DNA of 64,000 bases, taken from IMG/VR virus record IMGVR_UViG_3300042256_000013, positions 288,001 to 352,000 of that record. One strand, 5' to 3'. The DNA comes from a virus. Its lineage: Duplodnaviria; Heunggongvirae; Uroviricota; Caudoviricetes. Positions 7,257-11,347 of the stretch are shown in pieces. Made by a program: the position numbers and the translations under genes. Position 1 is the first letter of the stretch; each line of letters opens with the position of its first letter. The notes under the pieces are model-generated. The model ran no database searches, was not told the DNA's origin, and saw nothing but the letters and a program-made list of their open reading frames with translations.

Positions 7257-7283
7257 TAAAAGAAAAGGAGGCAAAGCCTCCTT
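7257..7283 (-). terminator. Intrinsic terminator
   Basis: AAGGAGGC-TTT-GCCTCCTT followed by a T-rich tract on the minus strand. Confidence 0.7.
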
Positions 7284-7901: not shown

Positions 7902-7930
7902 AAAAGAAAAGGAGACTAAATTGTCTCCTT
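7902..7930 (-). terminator. Intrinsic terminator
   Basis: AAGGAGAC-loop-GTCTCCTT plus T tract. Confidence 0.7.
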
Positions 7931-7935
7931 ATTGA

Positions 7936-8385
7936 TTATTGTAGTACTTTAAGTTTATATAAGATGCTCTCAACAAAACTCATAATATCTTCGAGTGTGT
8001 TTACAGAGCCGTATTCTCCAAGTCCATCCAATATTTCATGTATTTTTATGCAATGTTTTACATATTCTTCCAGTAGAGGAATTGCTTCTTCAAAAGGTTG
8101 AAAAACATAAGAACTGCCAGTACTGAAAATTGGCCCACGGTCTGCCATCATTCCTTCTATGAAGGTATCAACATATTCTGGTAGGTTCTGATAGAATTCA
8201 TCCAGTTCCATATGTTTAGAATAGTAGTTGCACTGTAAGTGCCAGTGGTGTGCTTGGGATTCAAGAAATAGACTATTCTCTACGAATTTAATCAAAATAT
8301 CGTCATGAGTGTCGTCAGTAGTTTCTACATAATCAATCATACTGCGTATGTCGTTAGGATCAAAATGTTCGCTCATAAGTATCAT
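7936..8385 (-). CDS. Dps/ferritin-like protein
   Basis: AHHWHLQ..YSKHMELDEFY..DTFIE ferritin-like metal-binding pattern; TAAATA late-type element upstream at 8407-8412. Confidence 0.65.
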   Translation of the reverse strand: MILMSEHFDPNDIRSMIDYVETTDDTHDDILIKFVENSLFLESQAHHWHLQCNYYSKHMELDEFYQNLPEYVDTFIEGMMADRGPIFSTGSSYVFQPFEEAIPLLEEYVKHCIKIHEILDGLGEYGSVNTLEDIMSFVESILYKLKVLQ

Positions 8386-8409: not shown

Positions 8410-8775
8410 TTAGCAGTGAAAAATAAACTTCGGGTTGTAGTAATCACAAACCTTTTTGATTTTCTCATGTTCTACTGTTCCATAAACAAACAGAAATTCA
8501 CACGGAACTTCAGACAAATACATGGTATTAGTACTGATGAAATGTAAATTTTCTATCTTTTGAACAGGGAAATGAGGATCAAAATTTAAACAGATAACAC
8601 AATTATCTTCAAGAGCAATTTCTTTAGTTGCTTCATAAATTCCTAATGCTTTATCATCATTTAAATTTGGTAGGTATATCTGATTCTGTTTTGTTAGATA
8701 AGAATCATACTCAATTAAAATTAGAAAATATCTCAACATTGTACTGTTGAAATATTCATTGTCTGCAAGTTCCAT
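8410..8775 (-). CDS. Hypothetical protein
   Basis: ORF with GGAG RBS located inside a small hairpin (CTAAC-GGA-GTTAG). Confidence 0.6.
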   Translation of the reverse strand: MELADNEYFNSTMLRYFLILIEYDSYLTKQNQIYLPNLNDDKALGIYEATKEIALEDNCVICLNFDPHFPVQKIENLHFISTNTMYLSEVPCEFLFVYGTVEHEKIKKVCDYYNPKFIFHC

Positions 8776-8921
8776 TGCCTAACTCCGTTAGTCAAGAATT
8801 TTCGTTAGTACTCACGTTGTTCGTACTTAACTCAATTCCTTTTAAACTATTTAATACGTTTAACACTGTTTATACTGACGGGGTTTGTTGATCTATTTGC
8901 ATCCCCCCGCAAAGGGGAACG

Positions 8922-9394
8922 AAAAAAAGTCAGAACTAAGCTGACGGTGGTGGTCTTACCATCTGAATTTGTAGATTTCACTCAAATTTTGGACGGATCT
9001 ATATTGTCTAAAATTTGTAGTAAACACTGGCGGGTTGTCCGGTTTCCAGTTACTACAGTCGCATACAACGGTCGGAGTTTTCTCATTGCTCCGCATATAG
9101 TACTTGCTAATTCAGCAACAGGTACTATTGATATTCCGTAGAATATCTCCCTTTTAACAGGTGAGTATGCCTCTAATGCCTATCTGGTGCGTTCATGTCA
9201 AGGACGCATTTAAAGTGCCGCATTGCCGTGGGTGGTACAAACTATGCCAACTCCTAACGGGTAAAATATATTGCACTCGTACTGATTGAACTACTCAACT
9301 GCTGTTTACTTTTCAACGAGATCAGGTTCAAACTATTCCATTTCTGGATCAATCAGAGTTTTTAAAACAGTGAAGACCTTTTTATGATCTTCAC
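8922..9394 (-). ncRNA. Candidate large structured non-coding RNA (family unknown)
   Basis: No credible ORF, GC above background, at least 9 stems, extended -10 promoter at the 5' end, GTCAG/CTGAC + T7 terminator-like 3' end. Confidence 0.6.
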
Positions 9395-9397
9395 ATA

Positions 9398-9413
9398 CAT
9401 TATAGCACAAAAA
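9398..9413 (-). promoter_or_regulatory. Extended -10 promoter (TG-n-TATAAT)
   Basis: Minus strand TTTTTGTGCTATAATG; identical 16-mer at 37901-37916. Confidence 0.7.
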
Positions 9414-9434
9414 TTACAATCGTTTCATTTATTT

Positions 9435-10130: not shown

Positions 10131-10156
10131 AAAAAAGGAAATCTCACGATTTCCTT
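10131..10156 (-). terminator. Intrinsic terminator after the spanins
   Basis: AAGGAAATC-GTGA-GATTTCCTT plus T tract. Confidence 0.7.
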
Positions 10157-10939: not shown

Positions 10940-11347
10940 TTATTTTTGAATTATTTTCAAAATATCAGAAACTGTTTTTAGTTTTTCAGCTTCGTTATCG
11001 GAAATTTCAACATTAAATTCATCTTCGATTGCCATTATAGTTTCAACAACATCTAACGAATCCATCCATAATACATCATACAGATACGTTAAATCACTAT
11101 CAATCTGCACAACATCGTCTACCACTTCTTGATGTACTCCAGGTACATCAGAAAATATTTTACGAAGACGTGCCATATAATGATCAGTACTGGTTAATTC
11201 TTTATCAACTAAGTTTTTGATCGTATTTTCGCGAAGTGCATTAATGCGAATTTCCACTTCTTGGAGAATATCATACCTACGTACAGTATTTTTTTCTTTA
11301 AGATAAATTGATTCTAACTCATTAAGTACTTCATTTAGACTTGGCAT
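10940..11347 (-). CDS. Acyl carrier protein-like domain with N-terminal extension
   Basis: MDSLDVVETIMAIEDEFNVEISDNEAEKLKTVSD closely follows the AcpP pattern DSLD..E..M..E.EF..EI.D.EAEKI.TV, including the phosphopantetheine Ser. Confidence 0.8.
   Translation of the reverse strand: MPSLNEVLNELESIYLKEKNTVRRYDILQEVEIRINALRENTIKNLVDKELTSTDHYMARLRKIFSDVPGVHQEVVDDVVQIDSDLTYLYDVLWMDSLDVVETIMAIEDEFNVEISDNEAEKLKTVSDILKIIQK

Follow-up and report, generated by a model that had tools for sequence, protein, structure and literature searches.

This work points to a conserved and repeated DNA unit of about 650 bp (9427-8775) which very probably is transcribed and folds as a large RNA of an uncatalogued family, and which on balance seems to act as an RNA-primed R-loop replication origin, working like ColE1 RNA II or T4 oriF, if judged from its sequence and by analogy. 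The window (the whole stretch analysed, 64,000 nucleotides, bases 288,001-352,000 of a complete 371,104-bp phage record, with window position 1 at base 288,001) belongs to a GAP32-like phage of 371 kb that holds five copies of the element. The original prediction took the locus for the only long non-coding gap of the window, GC-richer than its flanks, and read it as an independently transcribed, structured and possibly new RNA encoded by a self-contained gene of about 470 nt. The gap and its composition are as claimed: the ORF-free stretch 8776-9434 (659 nt) is the sole one of at least 250 nt in the 64-kb window, and GC rises to 40-42% as opposed to 29-33% in the flanks. The large structured RNA, uncatalogued and with its own promoter, is strongly supported as well, though the five-copy family had been missed. 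The self-contained gene, on the other hand, is probably to be given up, because its terminator is optional, being absent in about half of the copies, and sequence conservation runs about 150 nt beyond it, to about 8775, so that the unit takes in a G-tract downstream, a repeat whose changes follow those of the 3′ motif R1, and DNA-type hairpins. A structured origin, mentioned earlier as the alternative, and the structured RNA are best read as one system. The parts of the unit, in the order of transcription, are:

9427-9422 and 9409-9399, minus strand: promoter, with a TGAAAC-type -35 and an extended -10 (pattern match).
9370-9394, minus strand: optional 5′ hairpin followed by a T-rich run (terminator-like match).
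9145-9362, minus strand: 5′ RNA domain (covariation).
9097-9147, minus strand: middle hairpins 9147-9130 and 9128-9097 (co-changes on the tree).
8963-9093, minus strand: 3′ RNA core, with the invariant words GACCGT, GAAA and ACCCGC (covariation).
8991-9008, minus strand: portable hairpin-loop module, capping different helices in different copies.
8955-8941, minus strand: R1, first matched repeat at the 3′ end of the folded RNA and proposed guide (identity covariation).
8922-8945, minus strand: optional intrinsic terminator, whose 5′ arm overlaps R1 in this copy.
8900-8917, minus strand: C-tract/G-tract hairpin with the near-invariant GGGGGAT (covariation alignment).
8889-8875, minus strand: R2, second matched repeat and proposed DNA target, with the same five-position signature as R1.
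8775-8866, minus strand: A+T-rich block of DNA-type hairpins (mini-hairpin counts and DNA folding).

The genes around the locus are ordinary late or accessory ones (a Dps-like gene, a spanin, an acyl carrier protein). With Xanthomonas phage XbC2 the locus shares 97% identity and with Cronobacter phage GAP32 89%, and all 62 phage records matching it are RaK2/121Q/GAP32-like jumbo phages. Against GAP32 the element keeps 89% of its DNA positions, as compared with 7-86% in the six neighbouring genes tested. Near the element lie the Dps/ferritin-like gene (7936-8385, minus strand), which keeps adjoining this paralogue from GAP32 through RaK2, and the acyl carrier protein gene (10940-11347, minus strand). 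A protein-coding gene can be set aside: the longest ATG-initiated ORF has 47 amino acids, frame-breaking indels run throughout the alignments, and annotators call differing small ORFs or none. No conserved ORF, which would have spoken against the RNA first proposed, turned up.

Folding of the single sequence barely beats its shuffles (z = -1.84, with 6 of 100 shuffles equalling it), and the real support for an RNA fold is therefore covariation. We derived the fold by mutual information and tree-based counts of co-change from 93 non-redundant full-length copies, taken from phage, metagenome and bacterial collections, and then scored it on independent alignments. Since the structure was derived from the same sequences, the pairing figures lean in its favour, and the stronger evidence is the many independent compensatory events on the tree rather than the pairing percentages. 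Both methods consistently support a predicted minus-strand fold with at least four pseudoknots. The 5′ domain has 44 pairs, 32 of them with two-sided change, and 92.1% of its cells pair, which none of 500 shuffles reaches (slid controls, 33-41%); the 3′ domain, including the G-tract hairpin, has 27 pairs (18 with two-sided change) and 95.9% of cells paired, again with 0 of 500 shuffles and with slid controls over both domains at 33-52%. Even when only the cells departing from the commonest pair are counted, 68% (5′) and 84% (3′) still pair. The covariation check foreseen by the original prediction came out in favour of the fold.

The helices of the 5′ domain are 9325-9299, 9294-9279, 9276-9273/9218-9215, 9260-9257/9229-9226 and 9208-9188. 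The first pseudoknot joins 9356-9349 to the hairpin loop 9289-9282 and the second 9223-9221 to 9178-9176; the third is long-range, between the loop 9115-9110 and 8968-8963, with compensatory co-changes on the tree at 9113/8965 (10), 9111/8967 (8) and 9110/8968 (9). In the fourth, within the 3′ core, 9066-9062/9041-9037 crosses both 9057-9053/8974-8970 and 9050-9047/9029-9026. Of the 93 copies, 39 contain the hairpin-loop module, with 34 occurrences in the middle region and 10 in the 3′ core. Every stem in the list of inverted repeats drawn up earlier is present, and three of them need a different reading: the long-range 9349-9356/9282-9289 is real pairing, if in fact a pseudoknot into a hairpin loop; the stem 9016-9057 retains its inner part (9050-9047/9026-9029) and loses its outer arm as conserved pairing, 9057-9053 co-varying with 8970-8974, its family-wide partner; and the GTGAAGA/TCTTCAC stem at 9370-9394 exists but is an optional insert, absent from many homologues, for which we infer a role as insulator or attenuator. 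A long-range pairing of 9260-9254 with 8790-8784 was dropped, 9260-9257 pairing locally with 9229-9226, and a two-pair helix (the equivalent of 9187-9186/9148-9147) is not claimed, as it shows no compensatory change.

The novelty suspected at the outset agrees with Rfam, which gave no match at gathering score in the window; at E values up to 10 it gave chance matches only at the locus, and none over the element in seven homologous loci. By covariance model the element belongs neither to GOLLD, ROOL or OLE nor to any other Rfam family, and no description of it was found in the literature searched. Resemblances to group I introns, RNase P and hammerheads were considered and found no support in Rfam; homology to the ncRNAs of PA5oct or to Atu_ph07 was searched for and not found; and a retron msr-msd or group II intron is not supported, as no RVT_1 was found in the genome (the control was positive in 3 genomes) and none was seen in the islands discussed below. 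In size class, in its many pseudoknots and loop-loop contacts, in being phage-borne and in its unproven function the element is like GOLLD (RF01998) and ROOL (RF03087), from which it differs by the lack of an Rfam match and of a neighbouring tRNA array, by its attached cis DNA signals and by its dispersed multi-copy layout. It could be, although we think it unlikely, an ornate RNA of about 450-500 nt that stands alone and acts in trans, a scaffold, cage or protein sponge in the manner of GOLLD and ROOL, for which the downstream blocks would be processing or termination signals. The four or more pseudoknots and loop-loop pairings with their strong covariation, the promoter of its own, the terminator in some of the copies and the precedent of large ornate phage RNAs with kissing loops (PMC12286853) all suit such an RNA, which would, however, leave unexplained the R1/R2 identity match, the G-tract, the strand-specific DNA-type hairpins and the spread of copies. 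Nor do these sit beside tRNA arrays, which are often neighbours of GOLLD and ROOL: the window and 16 island loci are free of tRNA genes, and the tRNAs of the genome lie at 60-117 kb, as against copies at about 43, 129, 213, 297 and 359 kb.

The behaviour of R1 and R2 suggests an action on DNA. These are imperfect direct repeats, R2 repeating the motif found at the 3′ end of the RNA, and in 91 of 92 copies they agree at five variable positions, the one exception resembling a one-base alignment shift. Two of the positions have undergone concerted changes on the tree (five and four, 9 in total), further rare variants are matched in Munch, RaK2 and one Serratia island, and paralogues within one genome carry differing variants, each matched in cis. 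Gene conversion is an unlikely cause, since adjacent positions still differ in most copies. A third RNA strand complementary to both was searched for and not found: among the alignment columns the best in-strand complement scores 0.48-0.76, compared with 0.94-1.0 for identity. With R1 and R2 covarying by identity and no RNA-strand complement, the template DNA strand is the simplest remaining partner of R1, and we infer that R1 of the RNA pairs with template DNA at R2. The match is not in a single register, so that bulges would be needed in the hybrid. Iteron origins, too, typically have direct repeats near an A+T-rich block, and R1 and R2 might be bound by a protein, with the whole element acting as DNA; yet a single protein would not enforce different cis-matched repeats on the paralogues of one genome, and the G-U wobble pattern and GNRA-type loops, which fit an RNA on the minus strand, together with the conserved promoter, make this reading very improbable. 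Between the two repeats, the changes in all four pairs of the C/G hairpin fall on the C side, from C to U, and never on the G side, and the G-tract is, by this pattern, constrained beyond pairing.

The block after R2 resembles single-stranded DNA in its hairpin make-up. In this copy it consists of the hairpins 8866-8841, 8838-8796 (with tandem G-A mismatches) and 8795-8775 (with a C-GGA-G mini-loop), and as DNA it folds with z = -2.27 on the minus strand and -1.28 on the plus strand. Within the 180 nt that follow R2 (downstream blocks adding up to 16 kb), mini-hairpins of the form purine-C-GNA-G-pyrimidine number 81 in sense and 2 in antisense, an enrichment of about 17-fold; the genome background is 0.3 per kb, and the RNA core has 0.5 per kb. 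DNA makes such mini-hairpins far more stable than RNA does, and they are present at the priming sites of phage G4 and RSF1010 (PMC13037366). The sense strand, which bears them, is the strand that an R-loop would displace, and we propose that 8775-8866 could be a loading site for helicase and primase on it. An 11-nt version of the mini-hairpin is found in 25 of 89 downstream blocks and nowhere in this genome, whose present copy has a simpler mini-hairpin at 8788-8782. The same motif, chosen after seeing ColE1, occurs there once (position 1332), on the same strand and about 150 nt past the G-tract, in what we take to be ssiA.

The likeness to ColE1 consists of a promoter, a structured non-coding RNA of about 500 nt, then a G-tract and an A-run, a downstream hairpin motif on what would be the displaced strand (ssiA/n'-pas in ColE1, PMC3167613), no Rep protein, and a signature of RNA-template pairing, which in the element is seen from sequence. 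The ColE1/pMB1 pre-primer RNA II runs for about 550 nt from its promoter (PMC5043065); the element, with a median of 500 nt from predicted start to G-tract (398-593, 90 copies), follows this type of layout. In ColE1 the rG stretch pairs with template dC and nucleates the hybrid, and the displaced strand serves helicase and primase (PMC4412123, PMC5043065). Even so, by sequence the element is not a member of the ColE1 family: its profile HMM does not match ColE1, a covariance model of the 3′ core run with filters off gives nothing at E<=10, and remote homology to RNA II, suggested by motifs, was not found by these searches. Nor was the element found on plasmids when these were searched. Unlike ColE1, it is multiply pseudoknotted, has an internal terminator and several copies per phage chromosome, carries a variable matched repeat where ColE1 has a fixed G/C stretch, and shows no antisense RNA I at the locus, where plus-strand promoter-like matches are weak and at chance level. 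T4, which has several promoter-driven R-loop origins in one genome (PMC3016281), offers the other comparison: oriF/ori(uvsY) and oriG (PMC3016281) share with the element several promoter-driven sites in a large phage, RNase H and an A+T-rich downstream region, but are about 100 bp long, have little sequence in common and need no RNA fold, whereas the element is a conserved 650-bp family with an ornate one.

The extended -10 noted originally at 9399-9409 is present as written, and the promoter is conserved in most copies (the pattern was found in 70 of 93 homologues), with a predicted transcription start at about 9392 from sigma-70 spacing. Genome-wide its class counts 32 on the minus strand and 0 on the plus strand; within the window, minus-strand promoters of one phage class (TGAAAC/TGGAAC -35, extended -10) lie at 9427, 37930, 47098 and 63715. 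The terminator hairpin with its T7 run (8922-8945) is likewise as first described, but is an optional insert: 43 of 90 copies have a terminator-like hairpin in this place, between R1 and the G-tract. Such an internal terminator could suit a cis-acting nascent-RNA regulator of the downstream genes, a put/nut-like antiterminator or attenuator, as could the co-orientation of most copies with long operons and the loop module common to seven repeated early leaders of the genome. Still, the next gene is convergent in one 121Q copy and in several islands, the neighbour genes of paralogues are not conserved, and DNA-type hairpins would stay unexplained, so that we regard such a regulator as quite improbable. 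The early leaders themselves follow strong TTGAC-type early promoters on the minus strand, outside the window, at genome positions of about 1,111, 3,136, 4,630, 11,713, 12,900, 15,297 and 18,077; each has two small hairpins and then the word held in common with the portable loop module, and they are candidates for a put/nut-like nascent-RNA signal or for the binding site of one phage protein.

All five copies in this genome lie on the minus (main coding) strand, 55-86 kb apart. GAP32, fHe-Yen9-04, Munch, EJP2 and XaC1 also have five, 121Q has four, and RaK2 and Muenster have three detectable copies each, with a gap of about 185 kb; genome searches of PA5oct and Atu_ph07 detected none. Spacing is more even than under random placement (p of about 0.002 in this genome and 0.004-0.03 in four relatives, which are not independent, positions being partly orthologous). 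A fourfold-site skew test for one-way replication gave no signal (p = 0.54). The phage encodes RNase HI and a DnaB-type helicase; a search for gp59 gave no match, the control being likewise silent. Some copies in Munch, XaC1, RaK2 and 121Q have a gene for an HNH endonuclease or endonuclease VII a short way upstream (L003:1468-2106, L005:2027-2662, L073:1-553, L004:2360-2851), with no such neighbour at this genome's copy. Even spacing would also fit chromosome-organising sites, and an R-loop or DNA opening in cis for a non-replicative end (recombination entry, nucleoid or packaging anchor, transcription roadblock) shares all the evidence of RNA-DNA pairing and single-strand hairpins. We nevertheless hold it to be rather improbable, given the RNase H of the phage and the capture of the unit by small integrase-bearing islands without recognisable Rep, which fits copying better.

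These islands, of about 10 kb, occur in Citrobacter, Enterobacter, Serratia, Silvania, Buttiauxella and E. coli, and the single copy in each is full-length and includes promoter, R1/R2 and hairpins. Their typical genes are a large serine or tyrosine integrase, a CI/S24 repressor with a Ner-like partner and a resolvase, and their defence cargo includes Kiwa, Lamassu, GmrSD and Hachiman. Among the island proteins scanned none was recognised as a Rep or primase, though several have no family and could therefore be initiators. The island copies sit in at least three places among the phage copies on the tree, which suggests repeated capture. Islands are rare, as none of 150 other genomes of the order has a match; 2 of 5,426 E. 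coli genomes have one. Vibrio PLEs encode an initiator of their own, whereas the islands, with no recognisable Rep, carry the phage-type RNA unit instead. Like phage satellites such as the PLEs (bioRxiv 10.1101/671271), the islands are small and integrated, with integrase, repressor and defence cargo, and appear tied to a lytic phage. In Citrobacter and Enterobacter two different defence islands occupy the same ppdD-nadC site, and an E. coli island that carries this RNA lies at ffs, with a tyrosine integrase interrupted by IS3 (spans L286:3846-13148, L287:8760-19080 and L285:10997-21341 for the ppdD-nadC and ffs cases). In Serratia fonticola two identical 87-codon ORFs stand in tandem between copy and host genes (L289:16776-17491).

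If the origin reading is correct, RNA polymerase would start at the phage-class promoter and the nascent RNA would fold into the multiply pseudoknotted scaffold that covariation supports. In transcripts passing the optional terminator, or with their 3′ end delivered in cis, R1 would pair with template DNA at R2, 47-100 nt downstream, as identity covariation suggests, and this pairing and the G-tract would nucleate a persistent RNA-DNA hybrid. The displaced non-template strand could then fold into mini-hairpins on which helicase and primase load, and phage-encoded RNase H could trim the RNA to a primer. A genome of 350-370 kb would in this way be divided into replicons by its three to five co-oriented copies, and small bacterial islands may have acquired the unit as a way of being replicated in infected cells with no need for their own Rep. 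In favour of the origin stand the R1/R2 match without RNA-strand complement, the constraint on the G-tract, the ColE1-like distance from promoter to G-tract, the strand-specific mini-hairpins, the even spacing, the R-loop precedent of T4, the phage's own RNase HI and DnaB-type helicase, the Rep-less islands and the 11-nt motif present in downstream blocks and once in ColE1. It is weakened by the lack of sequence or covariance-model homology to ColE1, the three copies and wide gap of RaK2 and Muenster, the lack of detectable copies in PA5oct and Atu_ph07, the absent strand skew, a fold far more elaborate than T4 origins require, a terminator preceding the G-tract in about half of the copies (this one included), the bulges needed by the R1/R2 hybrid, the choice of the ColE1-shared motif after the fact and its absence from this copy, and the family-less island proteins that could be initiators.

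It is tempting, if doubtful, to go a step further and suppose that the folded RNA is itself the initiator, which would present R1 as a variable guide, invade the R2 DNA beside its own gene, open the duplex and leave a primer. This would be a programmable, RNA-guided and Rep-less origin, which jumbo phages would use in several copies and which Rep-less defence islands would have pirated. How the 350-kb RaK2/GAP32-like phages start replication is not described in the literature searched, and the origin reading would name five candidate sites per genome. The element also adds an uncatalogued class of large RNA for which, unlike for GOLLD and ROOL, there is a proposed mechanism open to direct test by compensatory mutations, and it suggests a route by which small islands with GmrSD, Hachiman, Kiwa or Lamassu cargo might be amplified during jumbo-phage infection.

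Elsewhere in the window, terminator-like hairpins at 7265-7283, 7909-7930 and 10135-10156 hold in one arm an AAGGA(G) word, resembling a ribosome-binding site, just before the next gene, a possible coupling of termination to translation start. The word AGTACT has 166 occurrences in the window and 1,087 genome-wide. Among the genome's 30 tRNAs, ARAGORN reports one with a CTA anticodon (96039-96112 of the genome, minus strand), possibly an amber suppressor.
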